Sequence record: PV577658
Length of the DNA stretch: 64,000 nt
Strand: one strand, 5' to 3'
Source: Escherichia phage vB_EcoS_MM-2
The notes beneath the pieces are model-generated. The model saw nothing but the letters and a program-made list of their open reading frames with translations. It had not been told where the DNA came from and made no database searches. The translations under genes were made by a program, and so were the position numbers. The number at the start of each line of letters is the position of its first letter. Position 1 is the first letter of the stretch. Positions 9,114 to 64,000 of this stretch are shown here, piece by piece.

Positions 9114-9149
9114 TTTTTAGATAAATCCACCAACAAAAGGAACACAGTT

Positions 9150-9446
9150 ATGACCAAAGCTGAAATTATCGCACAATGTGAAAAATTTGGTGAGTTTTAT
9201 CTTCATTACGAGAAACTTCGTCAGAAAGGAACCACGTATCTTCAGGGTACGATGGAATTTGATCCAGCCCAAGATAAATATCTAGCTGAGCGTATTAAAC
9301 GTGAACGTATTCGTAAAGCGAAAGATGATGAGATCCTTGTCTTCTCTCGTACTAATGATAGCTTCCGTTTTATTCCTGTCGAAAAAGTCCGTCGTGTGAC
9401 TAGCCTCCAATCAGAGTTAGATCGTGCTTCTCCAGTAGGCCGATAA
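9150..9446 (+). CDS. hypothetical protein
   Basis: Track ORF followed by a terminator hairpin. Confidence 0.4.
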   Translation: MTKAEIIAQCEKFGEFYLHYEKLRQKGTTYLQGTMEFDPAQDKYLAERIKRERIRKAKDDEILVFSRTNDSFRFIPVEKVRRVTSLQSELDRASPVGR

Positions 9447-9456
9447 GAAACCAATT

Positions 9457-9478
9457 AGCCCCTATATGGGGCTTTTTG
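9457..9478 (+). terminator. rho-independent terminator
   Basis: agcccc-tatat-ggggct hairpin followed by ttttgtg. Confidence 0.6.
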
Positions 9479-9496
9479 TGTATTTGGGATATGTAA

Positions 9497-9805
9497 ATGA
9501 GCGAACAGGTAAATCAAAACTATGAAGGACACGTTGATGACCAGTCCATCATACTTTGGGAGAAGGAGGGAGAACAAGTAAGATTAACAGTATCTGAATT
9601 TCGTGGGAATCTATACATGGGTATTCGTTACTGGCTTCTTGATATTAATGATGAGTGGTTTCCAACGAAATCTGGCTTCTCTTTTCCTTACACCCTAGAA
9701 ACAACATCACAGCTTTTCTATGCGTTTACACAGATTCTTAGCGAATCTGAGGTTTTACATGAAGTACAGAAACGAGCTGAAGAACTCAAAGCCAAGAATG
9801 CCTAG
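9497..9805 (+). CDS. hypothetical protein
   Basis: Track ORF; stop codon lies in the loop of the following terminator hairpin. Confidence 0.4.
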   Translation: MSEQVNQNYEGHVDDQSIILWEKEGEQVRLTVSEFRGNLYMGIRYWLLDINDEWFPTKSGFSFPYTLETTSQLFYAFTQILSESEVLHEVQKRAEELKAKNA

Positions 9806-9818
9806 TTCTTGGCTTTTT
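9791..9818 (+). terminator. rho-independent terminator
   Basis: gccaagaa-tgcctag-ttcttggc (8-bp stem) followed by tttttcttt. Confidence 0.6.
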
Positions 9819-9832
9819 CTTTATAAATGTAC

Positions 9833-9880
9833 TTGCTTTCAACTCAGTTTTGTTATATAATATTTATATAAATTAATGAG
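9833..9880 (+). promoter_or_regulatory. early promoter (TTGCTT-17-TATAAT)
   Basis: ttgctt..tataat then atttatataaattaatgagag downstream box. Confidence 0.55.
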
Positions 9881-9891
9881 AGGGTTGCAAA

Positions 9892-10164
9892 GTGAAAAAG
9901 ATAAGTATAAGTACACTTAAACCTTTCCCGTACATCGGACAGCCTCTTATACTTATGTGGGAGGAGAAGATTAATGGGGAAAAGTATACTAAAACTAGAA
10001 GTGGGTATAAGCTGACTTCACTTCATTACGAAAAAGAAGTATTAGTAGCTGAAATATACTCTCCGTTGTCAGATAGGCTAGTAAAAACTACATATTTGCA
10101 TCGTTGCAAAAATTATACATGGCACGGATCCACTAGACAACCCTCATACTGTGAGGCAGAATAA
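9892..10164 (+). CDS. hypothetical protein (GTG start)
   Basis: Track ORF beginning at gtgaaaaag. Confidence 0.35.
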   Translation: MKKISISTLKPFPYIGQPLILMWEEKINGEKYTKTRSGYKLTSLHYEKEVLVAEIYSPLSDRLVKTTYLHRCKNYTWHGSTRQPSYCEAE

Positions 10165-11136
10165 ATGACCAATGTAAAAGACTTTATTAAACGCTGTCAA
10201 GAAGCATATTATCAAGGTATGTCTTTAATCTCTGACGAAGAATATGATCGTCTGATTAAAAGATTTCCGTTAGAAGAAGAGATCGGGCCTAAGGGCGATA
10301 TTCCACATCTGTATCGTATGTATTCTTTACAGAAAGTTTATTATAATCGTGGAGATAAACCCCCGTTTAACCCATTAGGTCAGGTAGAAACTGATAAGTT
10401 AGATGGTTGTGCAATTTCTCTGTTATATATTAATGGCGAATTTGTTCAAGCACTAACTCGTGGTAACGGTATTCTAGGGAATGATGTCACAAGCAACGTA
10501 AGATTGCTGAACATCCCTAAAAAGATTTCCCAAAAAGTACCTACTCAAATCACTGGTGAAGTTCTAATTACAAAAGAAGTAGAAAATAAACGTAACTTTG
10601 CCTCTGGTGCTATTAACCTCAAAGATAGTGATGATTTTGTACAACGTATCGGAGAAGGTGGTTTAATCTTCGTTGCATATGGTATCCAGTGTTCTGCTGA
10701 ATCTGTAGGTATTACAGAAGCATATTTAAAAGATATGCTTTGGCTGGAGAATGAGAACTTCTTAACAGTTGTTAATGTGCGTTCTTTCTTTAAATGGATT
10801 CCGACGGACGGTAAAGTTGTTCGTATTAATGATAACAACAAATTCTTCCGTGAAGGCTGGACTAATAAATTCCCTCGTGGAGCATTCGCTATTAAAGAGG
10901 ATGAAGAAGGCGAGATTACAACTCTTACTAAAGTTGAATGGCAGGTAGGAGCTTCTGGTAAAGTAACTCCAGTTGGTTATTTCGAACCGGTAATTATTGA
11001 TGATGCTACAATTGTTAAAGCGACTCTTAATAACGTTGATTATATTAACTCTCTTGATCTAGAGATCGGTTGCCAGATTCGAGTGATTCGTGCTGGTGGT
11101 GTAATCCCGTGCATAGTAGAGCGAGTATATGATTAA
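10165..11136 (+). CDS. ligA: NAD-dependent DNA ligase, N-terminal subunit (adenylation domain)
   Basis: KxDG adenylation motif (TDKLDGCAIS), LTRGNG, and LigA-like layout. Confidence 0.75.
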   Translation: MTNVKDFIKRCQEAYYQGMSLISDEEYDRLIKRFPLEEEIGPKGDIPHLYRMYSLQKVYYNRGDKPPFNPLGQVETDKLDGCAISLLYINGEFVQALTRGNGILGNDVTSNVRLLNIPKKISQKVPTQITGEVLITKEVENKRNFASGAINLKDSDDFVQRIGEGGLIFVAYGIQCSAESVGITEAYLKDMLWLENENFLTVVNVRSFFKWIPTDGKVVRINDNNKFFREGWTNKFPRGAFAIKEDEEGEITTLTKVEWQVGASGKVTPVGYFEPVIIDDATIVKATLNNVDYINSLDLEIGCQIRVIRAGGVIPCIVERVYD

Positions 11137-25296: not shown

Positions 25297-26171
25297 TGAG
25301 TAAATCCTGGGGAAAATTTATTGAAGAAGAGGAAGCTGAAATGGCTTCCCGTCGTAACCTAATGATTGTCGATGGAACTAACTTAGGCTTTCGCTTCAAA
25401 CATAACAATAGTAAAAAACCATTTGCCTCAAGTTATGTTTCCACTATTCAGTCTCTAGCAAAATCTTATTCTGCTAGAACTACAATAGTTTTAGGAGATA
25501 AGGGGAAGTCTGCATTCCGCTTAGAGCATTTACCTGAGTATAAGGGTAATCGAGATGAGAAATACTCTCAGCGTACGGAAGAGGAGAAAGCGTTAGATGA
25601 GCAGTTCTTCGAGTATTTGAAAGATGCTTTCGAGTTATGTGAAACTACATTCCCAACTTTCACTATTCGGGGTGTAGAAGCAGATGATATGGCAGCTTAT
25701 ATTGTTAAACTGATCGGGCATCTATATGATCACGTTTGGCTGATTTCTACTGACGGTGACTGGGATACTTTATTAACTGATAAAGTATCTCGCTTCTCTT
25801 TCACAACACGTCGTGAATACCATCTTCGTGATATGTATGAGCATCATAATGTTGACGATGTAGAGCAGTTTATCTCCCTGAAAGCAATTATGGGTGATTT
25901 AGGGGATAATATCCGAGGTGTTGAAGGTATTGGGGCAAAGCGCGGGTATAATATTATTCGTGAATTTGGTAACGTTCTGGATATTATTGATCAGCTTCCA
26001 CTGCCTGGAAAACAGAAATATATACAGAATTTAAATGCTTCGGAAGAATTGCTTTATCGAAACCTAATTCTGGTTGATTTACCTACCTACTGTGTGGATG
26101 CTATTGCTGCTGTAGGTCAAGATGTATTAGATAAATTTACAAAAGATATTTTGGAGATTGCAGAACAATGA
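25296..26171 (+). CDS. D15: 5'-3' exonuclease / flap endonuclease (T5 D15-type)
   Basis: 291 aa; N-terminus MSKSWGKFIEEEEAEMASRRNLMIVDGTNLGFRF matches my recollection of T5 exonuclease; FEN acidic clusters and H3TH region. Confidence 0.9.
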   Translation: MSKSWGKFIEEEEAEMASRRNLMIVDGTNLGFRFKHNNSKKPFASSYVSTIQSLAKSYSARTTIVLGDKGKSAFRLEHLPEYKGNRDEKYSQRTEEEKALDEQFFEYLKDAFELCETTFPTFTIRGVEADDMAAYIVKLIGHLYDHVWLISTDGDWDTLLTDKVSRFSFTTRREYHLRDMYEHHNVDDVEQFISLKAIMGDLGDNIRGVEGIGAKRGYNIIREFGNVLDIIDQLPLPGKQKYIQNLNASEELLYRNLILVDLPTYCVDAIAAVGQDVLDKFTKDILEIAEQ

Positions 26172-50552: not shown

Positions 50553-52310
50553 TTAGGTAAGGCGTTGAACTGTTACTCTTAATCTAGGTAGAAAAACTGC
50601 ACTACCTAAACTTACGTGCATAACTACCCCTAACTCTACATTTCCATTCCCCAGATTTTTAGCAGTATATATAAAACTATTTCTACTTAGGGCATTGTTA
50701 GGTGTGTATCTAAAAGCAGATGTAGTATGAAAAGGTACTAAATACCCTACTGGTAATGTTAAAATCTGGTGGAATATCGCGTCACCATTACTATAACTAT
50801 ATGCTCTTCTTCCTTGCACCTGAAACACACCGTTATTCCATGTATTAGCAGGGACACCTGCACAGTTAAGATTACCTGATATAACTTCAGTGGTAAGAAT
50901 TACTGTAGCATTGCCACCCGGTATACCTAGCCCAATAGTTGATAAACCAACGTATCTATCTCCTGTTCCTGGGTAGCTGGGGGTAATATCATCTCCCATA
51001 TAAGAACTACCTACATTTCCACCAAAAAGTCGTAATGGAACTGCTGATGGTCCCCAAACAACCCCGTGTTCATTACCGATAGTATTATCATTAGAGTTTA
51101 CGTACCATTGCTTACCAGCTCCGAATTTGTAAATACTAATTTGAGACTTAGCCCCTCCATAGTCCACAGGAGACCATAAACTCCCGTTACTAGAACCTAC
51201 AAGTTCACACCTTGCGGTGGTATCCCCAAAGGCCCCAGTATATGCTGCATTATTTCCAATATATTCCATATCTGGTCTATAACCTAAGTTACCGAAAGCG
51301 TTCTGGTTAATAAACTTGTATCCAGTATTGGGAAGACTAACCCCTTTAATTATGAAATTAGAAGGAGATATAAGAATATCTGAACCAGTAAAAGGATTAC
51401 CAGAGATACTCATACCACCATTTGAGTATCTTAAATTCAAAACGTACCAAATAACTTTAGTAGGAGTTATGTTATACCAATCTTGTAGTATTGTAGAATC
51501 ACCAGATTGATTAGCTAAATTAGTTGTAGAACCCCTACAAACAAACCTATTACCCCCATCATGATACATAGTATTTACATTACCAGGAAGACCTTGTCTT
51601 ACCCCACCATACCCACGTATGTTAGAGTTACAAACATAGAACCAATCGTGCCCTCTGTGTGCTGATCCTAAAGGAGACATCCATCCTGGGTCCCAGTAAT
51701 TTTGGTTATTCCCATCTATAGGTACTGTACTACTATTAGTAGGGAATCCTAACTGTGCAAAAGCTTCTGCAACAGTAACCCCTACTGGAGCTCCTGCACC
51801 TGGCCTAACTATACCATGATACGTACTATGTAGGGTAGTTCCACCAGTACCATTCCTAGAAATAGATTCTTCATGCCCTATAGATGGATTATAGTTATAT
51901 GTACCAGATGCCAGGCTATTACCAAATGCAAATCCACTAGTCTGGGAAACACTAGCAAAAGATCTAAAAGGATCTGCTTGAGTGGCAACTATAGTTTGAC
52001 CCACCTTACTCTGAGTACCATTAAGAAAAGCTCTGTGAGTACCATTAATCTCAATAGCAGTTAATATAACTCTACCAGGATCGTTAGATTTAATATTTAT
52101 TATGTCAGAGGGCATCTGACATACAAAAAACCCATTTCCGGCATTTCCTAACCCAGCCTCATAAGTACCATCAACTAGGACAAATGGCATATCACTATGA
52201 AAAATACTATTGGCATTTGGACTATAGTGACGATTAATGTCACCACCAGATTCAGTATTTAAAGATAGTACGGTCTTACCATCGCTATATTTTCCAGCGA
52301 AAAAACCCAT
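50553..52310 (-). CDS. receptor-binding tail protein (T5 pb5-like)
   Basis: 585 aa, Gly/Asn/Ser-rich beta protein, transcribed divergently from the lipoprotein gene as oad/llp are in T5. Confidence 0.6.
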
Positions 52311-52335
52311 ATAATCTCCTATTATAAAAATGTAT

Positions 52336-52364
52336 TTGCTTTCATCCCTCTATTTTGCTATAAT
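52336..52364 (+). promoter_or_regulatory. early promoter (TTGCTT-17-TGcTATAAT) for the lipoprotein gene
   Basis: ttgctttcatccctctattttgctataat then agattcataaatt box. Confidence 0.6.
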
Positions 52365-52395
52365 AGATTCATAAATTAGAAATGGAGAGATAAAT

Positions 52396-52662
52396 ATGAA
52401 AAAGTTTGTGATTGCACTAGTTGCCGCAGTTATGTTATCTGGTTGTGCACCTGCTCCCAAACCATTTTGTACTGGATTTGTAAAATCTTTTGGTGGTGCG
52501 GGAGAAGAACATTACGGCCTCAAGGTTCAAAAAGTTCGTATTAAGGGAGATCGCTTCCCAGTAGTACAGCTCCGTACTAAGTTTGGATGGTGGGATCTCA
52601 GTCAGTTTGACCTTAAATATGGTGATTGTAAATTTAAACTAGAGCAATCTAACTACATGTAA
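52396..52662 (+). CDS. llp: Llp-type outer-membrane lipoprotein (receptor-blocking superinfection exclusion)
   Basis: Signal peptide with lipobox (MKKFVIALVAAVMLSGC); 88 aa precursor; position next to the receptor-binding gene. Confidence 0.75.
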   Translation: MKKFVIALVAAVMLSGCAPAPKPFCTGFVKSFGGAGEEHYGLKVQKVRIKGDRFPVVQLRTKFGWWDLSQFDLKYGDCKFKLEQSNYM

Positions 52663-52839
52663 TTAGTATAAAGCAAAAAGACATCTAAGTAAACTAAATT
52701 TTTTATTTTTTGGATGGTATATTGGCAGAAACCACTATGTAAGAAAATGAGAAGTCCTTCTAGGAAGTCACAAGCATGGTTGGTTATATACAAATTATAA
52801 AATATTTTAAAATACCATACTCATAGGAGCAAGAAAGAT

Positions 52840-52967
52840 ATGTCAAATAAAAGAAAGAACAGACGCGGAGAAGTGTACGAAGCGTGGATTAATATTTACG
52901 GATTTGGTTTTGTATTATTCCTAATCTTCGTAGGTTTTTGGTTAGCAGCTATGGCGGGGTGGATTTA
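52840..52967 (+). CDS. small membrane peptide (~42 aa), first of a coupled array
   Basis: Hand-translated: MSNKRKNRRGEVYEAWINIYGFGFVLFLIFVGFWLAAMAGWI; AGGAG RBS; stop overlaps next start (TAATG). Confidence 0.4.
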
Positions 52968-53123
52968 ATGGAATGGGTAATTATTGGCATATTCGTCTTA
53001 TTGATACTTCTCTTTGTAGGCTTACGTGTAATAGATACCTCTGTAACCCAAACAGAAATTAAATTAATGCAGTTGAGTAATAGATTATCTAGAATTGAAA
53101 CTTTATTAGAGGAGCGTAAATAA
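52938..53123 (+). CDS. small single-pass membrane protein (likely start at MEW, ~52968)
   Basis: MEWVIIGIFVLLILLFVGL hydrophobic helix then RIETLLEERK. Confidence 0.45.
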   Translation: MVSSYGGVDLMEWVIIGIFVLLILLFVGLRVIDTSVTQTEIKLMQLSNRLSRIETLLEERK

Positions 53124-53230
53124 TGGAATGGGTAATTATTGCACTACTGGGGATTGTGATTATTGGGCAATGTATTTTAGATAATTATTTAGCTAGAATT
53201 GAAACCTTACTATCGGAGAAACGTAAATGA
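53123..53230 (+). CDS. small single-pass membrane peptide (~35 aa), paralog of the previous gene
   Basis: Hand-translated: MEWVIIALLGIVIIGQCILDNYLARIETLLSEKRK. Confidence 0.4.
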   Translation: MEWVIIALLGIVIIGQCILDNYLARIETLLSEKRK

Positions 53231-53421
53231 TGGAAGTGGGAATTACACTAATAGTAATATTAGTCTGGGTAATCCTCATTGTCTCTCGTATAGTGTATCT
53301 CCGCCTAAAAACTCTAGAAGCTCAGGTGAAACAACAACAAGTTATTCTAGAAAAGTTAGTACTACTGCAACGTTGTGATAGCACCCGTATTCTGCAAATT
53401 GAGAGGGAATTAGATGTTTAG
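53227..53421 (+). CDS. small single-pass membrane protein
   Basis: MMEVGITLIVILVWVILIVSRIV hydrophobic helix then coiled-coil-like tail; ATGA overlap with upstream gene. Confidence 0.45.
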   Translation: MMEVGITLIVILVWVILIVSRIVYLRLKTLEAQVKQQQVILEKLVLLQRCDSTRILQIERELDV

Positions 53422-53659
53422 TATTGTAATTGCTTTTATTATCGGGATACTTGCGGGAGTTTTCGGGACAACTGCGGCAATCAACAAGCATCGTAAATAT
53501 ATTGCGGAAGTATCGCGGGAGATTGCGGAAAGGGAGCGGAAGTTTGACGAGAAACGTGCGGAGTTTGAGCGGGAGTGGTCGGACGGATCTCGGGCGTCGC
53601 GGAAGAGATTCCGTGAGTTCAGACCAGAACACAGGTTTGATGACCATTCTATGCGCTAA
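53414..53659 (+). CDS. small single-pass membrane protein with highly charged C-terminal tail
   Basis: MFSIVIAFIIGILAGVFGTTAA helix then Arg/Glu-rich tail. Confidence 0.45.
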   Translation: MFSIVIAFIIGILAGVFGTTAAINKHRKYIAEVSREIAERERKFDEKRAEFEREWSDGSRASRKRFREFRPEHRFDDHSMR

Positions 53660-53770
53660 TTTGACTTTTGCCAAATTTCATAAGATTACACATGGAGGTG
53701 TGTCCAGTGGGTCGGGGGAGAATACTTAGTCTGCTAACCGCCACCCCCCGTTACTATTATCATGGTAATT

Positions 53771-53807
53771 GTTTCACCCTGCAATTAAAATGGTTGCAGG
53801 GTGAAAC
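53771..53807. terminator. bidirectional terminator hairpin (perfect 14-bp stem)
   Basis: gtttcaccctgcaa-ttaaaatgg-ttgcagggtgaaac between the plus-strand peptide array and the minus-strand dmp-like gene. Confidence 0.7.
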
Positions 53808-53824
53808 AATTTCAACTTTAATTA

Positions 53825-54601
53825 TTACGCAACTTTTAATTTCTCGATATATTGTTGCGGGCTGCAACTATATTCTGCGCGTTCTTCCTCGGTCATACCT
53901 TCCCAACATAATTTCAAACGATCAGCTAGGAATTGATAATCATTATCATCATCGAGGGATTCATCAATAAAGGTTTCACCTATCAATGCCACGCCGATTG
54001 ATAGAATATCGTTAACGGCTTGCGCGTCCAGCGTTTTAAATCCGTATGATGCCGCCGCTGATAGTACACCCTTATGATCATCAATCATTGTAAAATCAGC
54101 GTTCGGATATAACTGTTTAAATAATTCAAAATAATAAGATTTATAAACTGCGTCTTTGCTGTGGTATATCTCGCTAACTTTATCAGCCTCAAAATATTTA
54201 TGCAGTGTATCGCGAGAAAACACGCGGATATTACTATCACCACGACCGCGCAAGCCTTGTTTGCGCAAATAATAATAGTCCGACTTGCTCATTAGTCGAG
54301 CGGTACAAATAATGTTTAAAGTATTTGCGTCATTCATGCACTGGCGCATATATGTAACAAGGGGCAATAAAGTATCTTGCATTATTAAATCATGTTTGCA
54401 GGCTTCATTTTTATACTTATTTAAATCTAAATTGCCCTCGCTATCAAAGCAAGGCGCTACACGATGGAAAGAATTAATGATAGTGCCGTCCAGATCCCAA
54501 ATCATGACGCGGGAAATATGCGGGAAATTACGGGTAATATTCATTTTAACTTGATTCATTTTGTTACGTTCTCCATTAAAGGGATTTAGTTTATCCAGCA
54601 T
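53825..54601 (-). CDS. dmp: HAD-family 5'-deoxyribonucleotidase-like protein (T5 dmp-like)
   Basis: HAD motif I MIWDLDGTI; first gene of a minus-strand operon with A1/A2-like genes; likely internal start giving ~244 aa. Confidence 0.55.
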   Translation of the reverse strand: MLDKLNPFNGERNKMNQVKMNITRNFPHISRVMIWDLDGTIINSFHRVAPCFDSEGNLDLNKYKNEACKHDLIMQDTLLPLVTYMRQCMNDANTLNIICTARLMSKSDYYYLRKQGLRGRGDSNIRVFSRDTLHKYFEADKVSEIYHSKDAVYKSYYFELFKQLYPNADFTMIDDHKGVLSAAASYGFKTLDAQAVNDILSIGVALIGETFIDESLDDDNDYQFLADRLKLCWEGMTEEERAEYSCSPQQYIEKLKVA

Positions 54602-54639
54602 TACCCGCTATTTATAAGCGGGTAATAATAAATCAACTA

Positions 54640-55032
54640 TTAAAGACCATAAGCCAACGCATCAGCGATAAAACTAACATCCTCACCGGATACGCTAGAA
54701 CGAATCCCCGCGCAGGTGTATACCTTTGCGCTCGCTAGCTGATCATCAAGGCAAGCGGGGCAAGGCGCGACAACTGCAAAGGCTAGACCAGATTTTACCG
54801 CGTCAATAATGATTGTTTCTTGTTTCATCGTGTCAACATAAACGCCTTTTGCTTTAATATGGCTGGTTAGTTTGCCTTGCGTATAGGCAAAGGTAGTAAC
54901 CTGTAAAGCGTCATTGAAATCTAATAATTCATCAATAACGTGCCCCGCCTCGACGTGGTAACGTTCACCATTAGAATAAACCAGAACAATGGAAGACTGA
55001 GCGCGATCGAATGGAATATTTTGCTTTTTCAT
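54640..55032 (-). CDS. small Cys/His-containing protein, possibly deaminase-like zinc-binding
   Basis: HVEAGH ... PCPAC motifs, but spacing (~70 aa) is longer than in canonical cytidine deaminases. Confidence 0.3.
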   Translation of the reverse strand: MKKQNIPFDRAQSSIVLVYSNGERYHVEAGHVIDELLDFNDALQVTTFAYTQGKLTSHIKAKGVYVDTMKQETIIIDAVKSGLAFAVVAPCPACLDDQLASAKVYTCAGIRSSVSGEDVSFIADALAYGL

Positions 55033-55071
55033 ACTTATAAAACTCCAATTAGTTTAATATAGGGATTTAAT

Positions 55072-55362
55072 TTATTTGATAATAATCTGCATCTGGTACG
55101 GCGTTAATTCACCGTTTACGGGTAAATTATTATCGCTTAGCCACTCATAAAAAGCGCCATCATCATCAAAAGGAACAACATCATTATCACGATAATCGAT
55201 GGAAATAATGCCATCCGTATTAGTTTTGGCGGCTAGGATAGGCCCAAAGCTGTAAACTTTATCGGATTCCATTTCATCCGGTGAGATGAATGCTTTTTCG
55301 TCCAATGTTTTGGGTAATGTAACTTTCATTTTTTGACTCCTGTAATAGCGGCTATATTTCAA
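55072..55362 (-). CDS. hypothetical pre-early protein (likely start at Met ~55329)
   Basis: Track ORF with conserved upstream translation-initiation region. Confidence 0.4.
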   Translation of the reverse strand: MKYSRYYRSQKMKVTLPKTLDEKAFISPDEMESDKVYSFGPILAAKTNTDGIISIDYRDNDVVPFDDDGAFYEWLSDNNLPVNGELTPYQMQIIIK

Positions 55363-55382
55363 GCCGCTAGGGGATAATTTAA

Positions 55383-57047
55383 TTACGCGAAAAATTTACC
55401 GTTTTTAAAGTCAATCAAAGTGCGCTGACCGTTTGCATAGGTAATTAAATGCGTTTGCGTCCAGCTTGACGCGCCAACGTTGTAACCCATATCCAGACTA
55501 CCAGCTACGCCAGCGGTATAAACGCCACCGTAAATGCTAGCGGTATGGGTGTGTCCCGTGTTTAGCTTGCCCAATTTCTTAAACTGTTTAGGATTGCCAC
55601 GACTGCCGTTAATGCCGTTGTGACCGTGTACGCCGCACTCAATGCCTGCAATCTTGAAAGATTGATCAGTGGTTAGGAAAATGGCGTTAAACTCACAACC
55701 TGCAACCTTGCGCAGCGCATAATCTAGCACGTTAAAAGTATCATCATGATCACTGATCGCCGCGTAAATTGCAGCATTCAGGCGGTGATATAGTTCGGCG
55801 TTGGCTGGATCGTCTTTGATGTTAGCATTACGATCATCTAACCAGCGGGATAGCGCCAAATCGTGATTAGATTCAACAATGATTGTTTGAGAGAAATCAC
55901 GTTCCATTGATTCCAGCACGCGCCCCGTATCGATAAGATCATCCAGAACTTTATCACGTCCAGCGGCATACTGTTTTGCTAGGAATACACCGGATGCACG
56001 GTTATGATGATTGCGCGATGTAAAATCATGCACGTCATGGATAAACTGATATTTTGGTTTAAGAATATCAAGCAAGCTATTTTCGCCAGCCCATGACGCA
56101 ACGGCACAATCATCATCTAATTTTTCCGCATGAATATCGCCATACTGCAAGCCTAAAACATGCCCCGATGTTTCATAGCATCCGGCAGGAGTAGCGCAAA
56201 CATTCAGATCATAAAACACCCCGCTTTCGTCCATTGTTTCAAGCTGGCGAACAAAAAATTCCCCGTCCTCGTCGAACTCAACAATCAGCGCGCCGAAGTT
56301 ATGCAGAGCTTCCGCTTTTTGTCCTGCTTTCTGCTGAATATAGTTTTTAAGCGTTGCCGTTCCGGTTGAATACATACGGCGCACTACTTCACCTTTTAAA
56401 GCTGGCACGCTTTCAGCGGTGATTTTAGCGTGACCAATTGCCAGCCCCTCAATATTGAGCGCCGTTGCAGTTTCTGCAAATCCTGAAAGCGGGTAATCTG
56501 CGGTTGGCAAAACATTAATTTCAGCCATGAAAGCAAAACGGCGGTTATTTAAAAACACGTTTTTGCTGCAAATATATTTATCAAATGCGGGATCGTATTT
56601 GATACCGTCTGCACCTTCTTCATTCTGGAAGCCATTTTTATTATAAATATACTTAGAAACAAGCAAATCAGCACCGATATATTCAGCGAATTTTTCCAGA
56701 CTTGCTAAAAAGTTTTTATGCGGGAAAGTATTATTTTGAATCGACGTAATAATAAAGCGTTTACCCTGTTTTACTTCCCATTGCTCAACCGTACTAGAAA
56801 CAATTCCCGCCGCTTCTGGGCGCTCATCGTTTTTAATGGCTTTTGCTACTTTTGCCGCTTTCGGTTTAGCTGGTTTATTTGCTTCCAGCCAGTCGCAGAT
56901 AGCGGTTGAATGCTTCGTTGTATCGTAGACCGCTTTTGATATATCGTCGCAGACTTCCAGTTTAGTAGCGCGCAGACGTTTACCATAGAAATTAAAGTCA
57001 GCGGCCATTTTCAGGATAACGGTTTGTTTTTCTGCGGAAATAATCAT
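55383..57047 (-). CDS. A1: A1-like pre-early protein with calcineurin-like metallophosphoesterase motifs
   Basis: 554 aa; GDIHAE and GHTHTAS metallophosphatase-type motifs; size and context match T5 A1 as I recall it. Confidence 0.6.
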   Translation of the reverse strand: MIISAEKQTVILKMAADFNFYGKRLRATKLEVCDDISKAVYDTTKHSTAICDWLEANKPAKPKAAKVAKAIKNDERPEAAGIVSSTVEQWEVKQGKRFIITSIQNNTFPHKNFLASLEKFAEYIGADLLVSKYIYNKNGFQNEEGADGIKYDPAFDKYICSKNVFLNNRRFAFMAEINVLPTADYPLSGFAETATALNIEGLAIGHAKITAESVPALKGEVVRRMYSTGTATLKNYIQQKAGQKAEALHNFGALIVEFDEDGEFFVRQLETMDESGVFYDLNVCATPAGCYETSGHVLGLQYGDIHAEKLDDDCAVASWAGENSLLDILKPKYQFIHDVHDFTSRNHHNRASGVFLAKQYAAGRDKVLDDLIDTGRVLESMERDFSQTIIVESNHDLALSRWLDDRNANIKDDPANAELYHRLNAAIYAAISDHDDTFNVLDYALRKVAGCEFNAIFLTTDQSFKIAGIECGVHGHNGINGSRGNPKQFKKLGKLNTGHTHTASIYGGVYTAGVAGSLDMGYNVGASSWTQTHLITYANGQRTLIDFKNGKFFA

Positions 57048-59351: not shown

Positions 59352-59372
59352 TTATACACAAAGTTATCCACA
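59352..59372 (+). promoter_or_regulatory. two adjacent DnaA-box-like sites
   Basis: gTTATACACAaagTTATCCACAgc: one perfect consensus 9-mer and one with a single mismatch. Confidence 0.5.
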
Positions 59373-59443
59373 GCACTTTTTGACTTGACACGATAGGCGG
59401 CGATATAAGGACTTTTACACAGACTTATCTACAGGTTATTCCA

Positions 59444-62933: not shown

Positions 62934-63083
62934 AACGATGGTTTAATCACTGGTACAAGCGGTTTTTAGTACGCCGTCGCAAGTCTAGGCATCAAGATGA
63001 GTGGCGGGAGTGGGCAAAGCGTAACGGTTGCCCGCTACTATAATAATCACGGGGCGCAACTATCGGGAAGTGCCCCCAATTCT

Positions 63084-63399: not shown

Positions 63400-63408
63400 T
63401 GTGGATAA
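63400..63408 (-). promoter_or_regulatory. DnaA-box-like site (perfect 9-mer on minus strand)
   Basis: tgtggataa is the reverse complement of TTATCCACA; flanked by repeated gataagtctgt. Confidence 0.45.
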
Positions 63409-63600: not shown

Positions 63601-63639
63601 TCATTCGCATTCAGGCGAGCAGGGCAATTGCCCTGCGCT

Positions 63640-63760
63640 TTTGTGCAAATCCGACATTGCTCCACGGGTGTTACGTGCGGGCGTGTATGTGCGAATCCCT
63701 GTGGGGTATGTGCAAATCCGACACGGTTTTTCTAGGATTAAGATGTGCGAATCCGACAAG
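63640..63760. repeat. four iteron-like copies of ATGTGC(A/G)AATCC(GACA)
   Basis: tgtgcaaatccgaca, tgtgcgaatccctgt, tgtgcaaatccgaca, tgtgcgaatccgaca at ~20-35 bp spacing. Confidence 0.65.
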
Positions 63761-63770
63761 ATTTTTGTGA

Positions 63771-63960
63771 CTTCGATTGGAGGGTGTGTGATTGTGTGAG
63801 TTTGGGGAGAAGTTGAGAGAGCGAGAAAAATTTGAGGGAACTGCGGGAGGGGCGCATGTTTGGTGCGGAGCACCTGATTTGCGGGGATTTTGGGGAAGAG
63901 TTGAGAAGATTTGGGTTAATTTGAGATTAGTGCAGAAAAAGTAAAATTTTATTAGCTAAA
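63771..63960 (+). other. polypurine, C-depleted tract with repeated (t)ttgag(a/g) motifs
   Basis: Almost no C on the plus strand; gttgagagag, tttgaggg, gttgagaag, tttgagattag; no credible ORF. Confidence 0.5.
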
Positions 63961-64000
63961 TGGAGCAAAATAGCTTGACAAGTGAAAATTCTTGTGGCTC

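Follow-up and report, generated by a model that had tools for sequence, protein, structure and literature searches.

By sequence and homology, the G-rich and C-poor tract at 63771-63960 is the conserved non-coding end module of a T5-type terminal repeat, in the region annotated as iss or Repeat Region 3. It carries motif arrays phased at about one helical turn, a palindrome whose arms are kept in the relatives and a nearly invariant distance to the repeat end. The window, that is the whole 64-kb stretch of DNA analysed here, closes exactly at that end. We tentatively favour the tract as a protein-binding architectural element tied to the formation of the repeat terminus, either in the terminase recognition or in the cut positioning, and possibly also to an injection pause.

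This region of the T5-like phages has been described before. What is added is descriptive and modest, namely the phased arrays, the terminus-spacing constraint, a palindrome that covaries and a deeply conserved base composition. The original prediction for this tract, made from the letters of the window, is confirmed in part as an observation and supported in part as an interpretation.

Composition and anatomy of the tract

The 190 nt of the tract comprise 52 A, 14 C, 70 G and 54 T, which makes the plus strand 7.4% C and 36.8% G. A scan of all 190-nt segments finds the lowest C content of the whole 64 kb here, with 12 C against a mean of 36 (sd 7), and limits the low-C feature to about 63755-63978. 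The GC skew also peaks here at 0.714, compared with a mean of 0.02 (sd 0.15) and a runner-up of 0.52. The binomial probabilities are 5e-6 for at most 14 C and 5e-8 for at least 70 G. The original prediction had noticed the near absence of C from the plus strand and proposed a plot of the compositional skew, and both the scan and the skew bear it out.

The ttgag-like repeats that it named are real as well. A 21-nt repeat family, GAKTTTGGGGARRAGTTGAGA, has copies at 63798, 63886 and 63906, and TTG[ACG]G, for which about 0.5 copies would be expected in 190 nt, has eight in the tract, its highest count in the window. Its term polypurine is wrong. Purines make up 64% of the tract and T 28%, with purine runs of at most 9 nt against 17 nt elsewhere in the window, so the asymmetry is of the G-rich and C-poor kind and not of purine against pyrimidine.

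This strand asymmetry arises because one asymmetric motif (TTTGGGG / TTGAGR) is repeated in one orientation at steps of about one helical turn. Cytosine deamination of an exposed strand was considered as its source and fits poorly, as G is raised to 37% and T, at 28%, is not above the window average of 31%. All the TTG(V)G spacings across the tract are 11, 19, 47, 11, 11, 10 and 10. With a spacing of about 10.5 bp, the motifs of array B share one helical face. In the TT-minus-GG Fourier signal at the 10-11 bp period, the tract ranks second of 3192 scanned segments.

The features are collected in the table. As single-stranded DNA, the palindrome between the arrays folds with -7.6 kcal/mol on the plus strand (z -2.1) and -7.2 kcal/mol on the minus strand (z -3.3). 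The terminal block has TTGACA at 63975-63980, and its final letters, GTGGCTC at 64000, are at once the repeat end and the right genome end.

Features of the repeat end and its upstream neighbours (positions in the 64-kb window)
Feature	Position	Strand	Basis or detail
Consensus DnaA box TTATCCACA of the upstream iss repeats	63400-63408	-	Consensus match; Davison 2020
Palindrome GCAGGGCAATTGCCCTGC and nick consensus GCGCAGGG (63631-63638, minus)	63620-63639	-	Homologue of the T5 major interruption, 63638^63639
Direct repeats GTGCRAATCCGACA (DRD)	63643-63758	+	Copies at 63643, 63710 and 63745, and a deletion-truncated copy at 63689; single orientation
Conserved left block ATTTTTGTGACTTCGATTGGAGGGTGTGTGATTGTGTGAG	63761-63800	+	94-95% column identity, 32 relatives
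G-rich, C-poor tract, non-coding	63771-63960	+	Composition scans; homology to T5 9958-10219
Array A, TTG(V)G starts 63802, 63813, 63832	63802-63836	+	Spacings 11, 19
Two-tier palindrome between the arrays	63853-63883	.	Outer CGCA (63853-56)/TGCG (63880-83); inner GGTGC (63862-66)/GCACC (63870-74); loop GGA
Array B, TTG(V)G starts 63879, 63890, 63901, 63911, 63921	63879-63925	+	Spacings 11, 11, 10, 10
Near-invariant A/T-rich terminal block ending GCTTGACAAGTGAAAATTCTTGTGGCTC	63934-64000	+	95-98% column identity; T5, MM-1 and seven IMG/VR ends

A promoter at the repeat end was considered and rejected, because the sequence across the boundary offers the TTGACA at 63975 no acceptable -10. As a separate observation, the 18-mer GCTTGACAAGTGAAAATT of the terminal block is also present in three unrelated IMG/VR viral contigs (L024, L028 and L035), and there it is followed by a -10-like A/T-rich sequence. 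In the T5-like phages, the repeat boundary cuts where a -10 would sit.

Position at the repeat end and conservation in relatives

The window comes from a Tequintavirus genome, of which it makes up the right half. Its 52000-56000 is 100% identical to 105931-109931 of Escherichia phage vB_EcoS_MM-1. Its last CDS ends at 63043, and the final 960 bp are a large untranslated region closing the terminal repeat. In T5 (121750) and MM-1 (118039), base 64000 aligns with the base on which both the record and its right terminal repeat finish, and it is the annotated left-repeat end in Spc35 and EscoHU1, with the caveat that several public repeat ends may be set by homology to T5 and not measured. Seven IMG/VR contigs end at the same base, exactly 10 nt past GCTTGACAAGTGAAAATT. 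Thus, the tract lies 40-230 bp from the physical right end, and the original prediction was right to call it terminus-proximal.

Some records place the repeat end elsewhere, 28 bp short in Kenya-K38 and 207 bp short in chee24. In Klebsiella phage Sugarland (PhageTerm-predicted, L056 3139) and in the T5 st0 record AY692264 (1..9749), it is put exactly at the nick, CCTGCGC^T, and not at GTGGCTC. The nick-derived read ends can pass for repeat ends, and some public records stop the repeat at the nick and not at the true end.

In the T5 record NC_005859, iss is annotated at 9140-10149, the major single-chain interruption at 9748^9749 of the minus strand and the repeat end at 10219. The same nick recurs in the right copy at 121279^121280. 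The tract is homologous to T5 9958-10219 with 87.8% identity over 260 nt, and therefore most of it falls within the annotated iss. In the window, the homologue of the T5 nick directly follows the palindrome GCAGGGCAATTGCCCTGC, 133 bp left of the tract.

Between the nick and the tract is the array of DRD repeats, a name from the T5 literature (Davison 2020). Compared with T5 and with both repeat copies of MM-1, 108 bp of the array are missing from the window, with the junction at 63699/63700 in a GAATCC microhomology. The deletion indicates that the DRD copy number is flexible and the tract length is not. Accordingly, the spacing from the tract to the nick and the upstream repeats is not fixed, and MM-1, although near-identical, differs in it from the window by 108 bp. 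In the left-repeat context, DRD repeats of one orientation stand on both sides of the tract and the boundary. There, the conserved core runs about 55 bp beyond the boundary (TAAAAACTCAGGCAATCATGGGCCTTCGGCCC...) and is followed by further DRD copies.

Several other features of the surroundings were noticed. The nick palindrome at 63620-63647 is followed by TTTT and scores as intrinsic-terminator-like on the plus strand, the nick lying between the stem and the T-run. The consensus DnaA boxes occur in both of Davison's inverted-repeat regions, one by iss (63400-63408, minus) and three about 4 kb upstream in the opposite orientation (59352-59421, plus).

A near-consensus sigma-70 promoter with an extended -10 is predicted 555-890 bp right of the left-repeat boundary and points leftward into non-coding DNA. 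Its minus-strand coordinates are L001 4692->4664, L002 ~3376->3347, L013 1795->1767 and L051 2161->2133. It is found in MM-1, T5, IrmaTschudi and Sealy, and so is kept in Tequintavirus, Epseptimavirus and a Klebsiella phage; in Sealy, it comes right after a terminator.

Elsewhere, the segments ranking second and third in GC skew, and the one ranking second in TTG(V)G density within the window, fall at 53054-53586, immediately left of the point where the right repeat starts (~53702). This stretch is coding, for small charged or membrane proteins with a 21-nt periodicity, and its likeness to the tract may be coincidental. A motif common to both repeat boundaries was also sought. The GGAGGTGTGT...GGGGAGAA at 53685 resembles the tract motif and was dropped, not being conserved in T5.

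The original prediction had named absence from the relatives as the outcome that would speak against it. That outcome is not seen, the 260-bp end being present in about 440 phage records with 76-100% identity and hardly any length change. From TTTTTGTGA to the end it is 239-241 bp in 31 of the 32 distinct Tequintavirus and Epseptimavirus sequences. With the tract stopping 40 bp before the end, this is the constrained distance to a terminus-forming cut that is looked for in pac- and cos-type sites. Conservation is strongest not in the tract but over the 67-bp block at the cut and some 55 bp past it, so the tract may be accessory.

The composition is conserved more deeply than the sequence. All the 12 aligned phages of both genera keep 5.8-9.9% C and 35-39% G though the identity of the tract falls to 68%, and C makes up only 9% at the variable alignment columns. 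The palindrome arms are kept in 32 of 32 relatives, while the loop varies among GGA, GAG, TGG, GGG, GGGG, GAA, TTCA and TTTA. Two compensatory pairs are seen in the inner stem in EscoHU1, and one pair of the outer stem changes from C-G to A-T between the genera. The remaining changes are G.T wobbles, except for one C.C mismatch in the relative L018. These pairs were counted by an anchored pair count, because the 3-nt and 4-nt loops were misaligned by MAFFT and RNAalifold on that alignment was uninformative.

The arrangement extends to more distant phages. Klebsiella phage Sealy, probably a Sugarlandvirus although its record gives no lineage, has in the same order DnaA boxes, the nick consensus, DRDs and a G-skewed tract, and then CCTGTGGCTC^TAAAAAAC. 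Its tract has a skew of 0.61 with GGGG every 10 nt, and its sequence gives no blastn alignment to the 63771-63960 tract. DnaA boxes and GTGCAAAACCGA repeats also occur in Vibrio phage phi 3, of another subfamily and with an A1 protein of 34% identity, together with tandem TAGTTTGGGGACGC units whose GC skew reaches 0.75. In this phage, the TTTGGGG-type arrays adjoin DRD-like repeats, and the annotated repeat end is left of the G-rich arrays.

Possible roles of the tract

In the reading we tentatively favour, the tract would be the G-rich core of the module closing the T5-like long terminal repeat, and the window would carry the right-hand copy. An oligomeric sequence-specific protein, most plausibly a small-terminase-like component of the terminus recognition, would load on the palindrome and on the motifs phased along one helix face, and would bend or wrap the ~190 bp. 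The wrapping would position the cut 40 bp further right, GTGGCTC^TAAAAAC, in the concatemers with one repeat per junction. The left copy, located just past the first-step-transfer stop, may add to the injection pause.

The geometry argues for this reading. As the spacing is fixed to the terminus and variable to the upstream iss repeats, the tract appears coupled to the repeat-end cut. Moreover, the T5 concatemers have been proposed to hold one repeat per junction, which is duplicated at packaging (PMC8108384), and this favours a role in terminus recognition and cut positioning. That the binder may be a small-terminase protein is suggested by analogy with the cosB and pac arrays.

Against the terminase part, the annotation of T5 counts the region as injection stop signal. 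Our literature search found no T5 pac or cos site and no small terminase site described, and nothing linking the tract DNA to terminase. The left end is stated to be packed first (PMC3517423), which leaves the packaging direction uncertain for the terminase reading.

The tract could also, though this is doubtful, belong to the injection stop signal proper. Its left-repeat copy, or a protein or structure on that copy, would then stall the DNA in the portal, tail or envelope after about 8% entry until the A1/A2 release. The iss annotated at 9140-10149 in the T5 records covers most of the tract, the region is described as conserved, rich in repeats and palindromes, and cis-acting (Davison 2020), and the tract is kept in all the A1/A2-bearing relatives examined. 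However, iss has never been mapped to base pairs, and the T5 tract is 240-560 bp to the right of the first-step shear point (7.9%, ~9618) and of the nick (9748). Davison 2020 places iss at the DnaA-box inverted repeats, 9332-9462. The spacings also oppose this alternative, since it is the distance to the upstream elements that shifts by 108 bp and the distance to the terminus that stays.

Another version would merge both functions, and we consider it unlikely. The phased TTTGGGG arrays and the palindrome would make up a conserved stop-and-cut signal, wrapped by protein, on DNA that passes through the portal. Its task in the concatemers would be to fix the terminase cut 40 bp away. As part of the left repeat, this element would be what really determines the injection stop, and would do so at the head-tail connector and not at the cell membrane, some one tail length behind the first-step shear point. 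Such logic may be general to the direct-terminal-repeat phages, because the repeat ends of T7, SP6 and phiKMV have similar G/T-rich TTGRG arrays.

Improbable to the same degree is that the tract is a Rho-utilisation site. Read leftward in the left-repeat or concatemer context, about 200 nt of untranslated, C-rich, G-poor and weakly structured RNA would end the early-region transcripts before an antisense run into the pre-early genes. Such minus-strand RNA, with 37% C and 7% G, is predicted to fold weakly, at -30.6 kcal/mol against -53 kcal/mol for the plus strand. The strong leftward sigma-70-type promoter is predicted in all four phages named above. Between it and the tract, a minus-strand intrinsic terminator was looked for in MM-1 and not found, whereas terminator-like hairpins intervene in Sealy and IrmaTschudi. 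A rut site needs the composition only, so the fixed length, the helical phasing, the 40-nt left block and the palindrome are left unexplained.

The tract might serve as a G/T-rich 3' single-strand tail, which seems quite improbable. The 5' resection of the right end would expose the plus strand for invading the other repeat copy, seeding concatemers or recombination-dependent replication, by analogy with other phage ends. The strand ending 3' at the terminus is 65% G+T, and the short terminal repeats of T7, SP6 and phiKMV also have right ends G/T-rich on the 3'-ending strand. These three phages are mutually related, though, and count as one observation. A reading of the final 1 kb brought no Chi sequence to notice, and neither the 10-11 bp phasing nor the palindrome is explained.

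An action by non-B structure alone, as H-DNA triplex or G-quadruplex, is very improbable and largely refuted by the sequence. The triplex-prone nature suggested earlier for the tract has no support, as H-DNA needs a long homopurine-homopyrimidine mirror run, typically of at least 15 nt, and the longest purine run here is 9 nt. G-runs are present, and a relaxed G4 pattern with one long loop spans 63836-63895. The canonical motif (four G-runs of at least 3, loops of 1-7 nt) is nonetheless absent from the tract, the whole window, T5 and 9 other relatives. It is found only in EscoHU1 and Sealy and is thus not conserved.

Hardly any weight is left for the tract as a site-specific nick or a nickase recognition site, the first role that the original prediction had offered. 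T5-like DNA does carry nicks, with the T5 consensus R/GCGCRGG (PMC3517423). Scanning both strands of 63771-63960 found no such match, and the nearest is at 63631-63638 on the minus strand, by the T5 nick homologue mapped 133 bp upstream. On the nicked strand, the window has the consensus only at 505, 23770, 34739, 49643 and 63632. T5 (L002 ~2571-2578) and about half of the Tequintaviruses do have a perfect GGCGCAGG inside the tract, some 150 nt short of the right end, but there it is on the plus strand, the one that is un-nicked. At that position, however, the window carries GGCGCATG (7/8 match) and the Epseptimaviruses have nothing similar.

As a side observation, the consensus occurs on the plus strand of the window once, at 25939, so it is biased 5:1 to the strand nicked in T5, and its positions are candidate interruption sites in phage MM-2.

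Lastly, a small protein, from the 50-aa plus-strand ORF 63792-63944 or from the open minus frames annotated in some records, is ruled out by frameshifts and truncations, in spite of a match of the ORF to phrog_32079 (E 5.6e-32) and the CDSs annotated at the tract in MM-1, chee24 and OSY-STA. Indels of 1 nt occur within the tract, the homologous ORF length modulo 3 is 0, 1 or 2 among the relatives, the frame is open for at most 28 aa in 15 of 32 relatives and the peptides are frameshifted in others. Pfam has no match for ORF 63792-63944, and the minus frames are open because that strand is G-poor and hence has few stop codons. The family phrog_32079 (function unknown) appears to be one of spurious ORF calls on conserved non-coding DNA, and flagging it is of practical use. 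A search with the Rfam 15 covariance models found no RNA family match, the lone sub-threshold hit being a chance one outside the tract.

Comparison with known systems

The stop of the T5 DNA entry after 8% of the genome and the cutting and duplication of the 10-kb repeats are old unsolved questions and are not solved here. The region now resolves into discrete parts that can each be tested, namely nick site, DRD array, phased G-rich arrays, palindrome and invariant terminal block. Among them, the G-rich part is geometrically coupled to the terminus and not to the upstream iss repeats.

The direct homologue is the T5 iss or Repeat Region 3 (NC_005859 9140-10149; Davison 2020). The order of elements is the same in T5 and the window, namely DnaA boxes, AATGAGAATCATT repeats, the palindrome and nick, DRD repeats, the G-rich tract and the repeat end, and the window differs from T5 in lacking the 108 bp of the DRD array. 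The T5 literature examined names the repeats and palindromes but not the G/C asymmetry or the phased TTTGGGG arrays, and the term G-rich has 0 matches in Davison 2020. The T5 major interruption sites (R/GCGCRGG) share the neighbourhood, at 63631-63638 of the minus strand, and the tract differs from them in having no consensus on the nicked strand.

The rut sites are similar in that the minus-sense RNA has a C:G ratio of about 5 over ~200 nt with low predicted structure. They differ from the tract in having no fixed length, helical phasing or conserved palindromes. As for the T5 region itself, it has reportedly also been treated by Heusterspreute in 1987, Wang in 2005 and Davison in 2015.

The terminase recognition sites of other phages lie near the cut, such as the cosB beside cosN in lambda, the hexamer arrays of the P1 pac and the pacL and pacR of SPP1. 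The tract has no known sequence similarity to the cosB and pac sites, and its cut makes the end of a 10-kb direct repeat instead of a cohesive or headful end. It is like them in its arrays of short direct repeats, which lie on the packaged side, no further than about 200 bp from the cut and at a fixed spacing to it.

T7 belongs to another phage family, with a 160-bp repeat instead of the 10-kb one and no alignment to the tract, so its likeness is resemblance and not homology. The right half of its terminal repeat has five TTG(V)G at 84, 102, 115, 127 and 139, i.e. 12-18 nt apart and directly before the repeat end, and none elsewhere in the first 520 nt. The repeat ends of SP6 and phiKMV are likewise G/T-rich on the top strand (T7 L052 84-143; SP6 L053 ~90-174; phiKMV L054 ~365-414).
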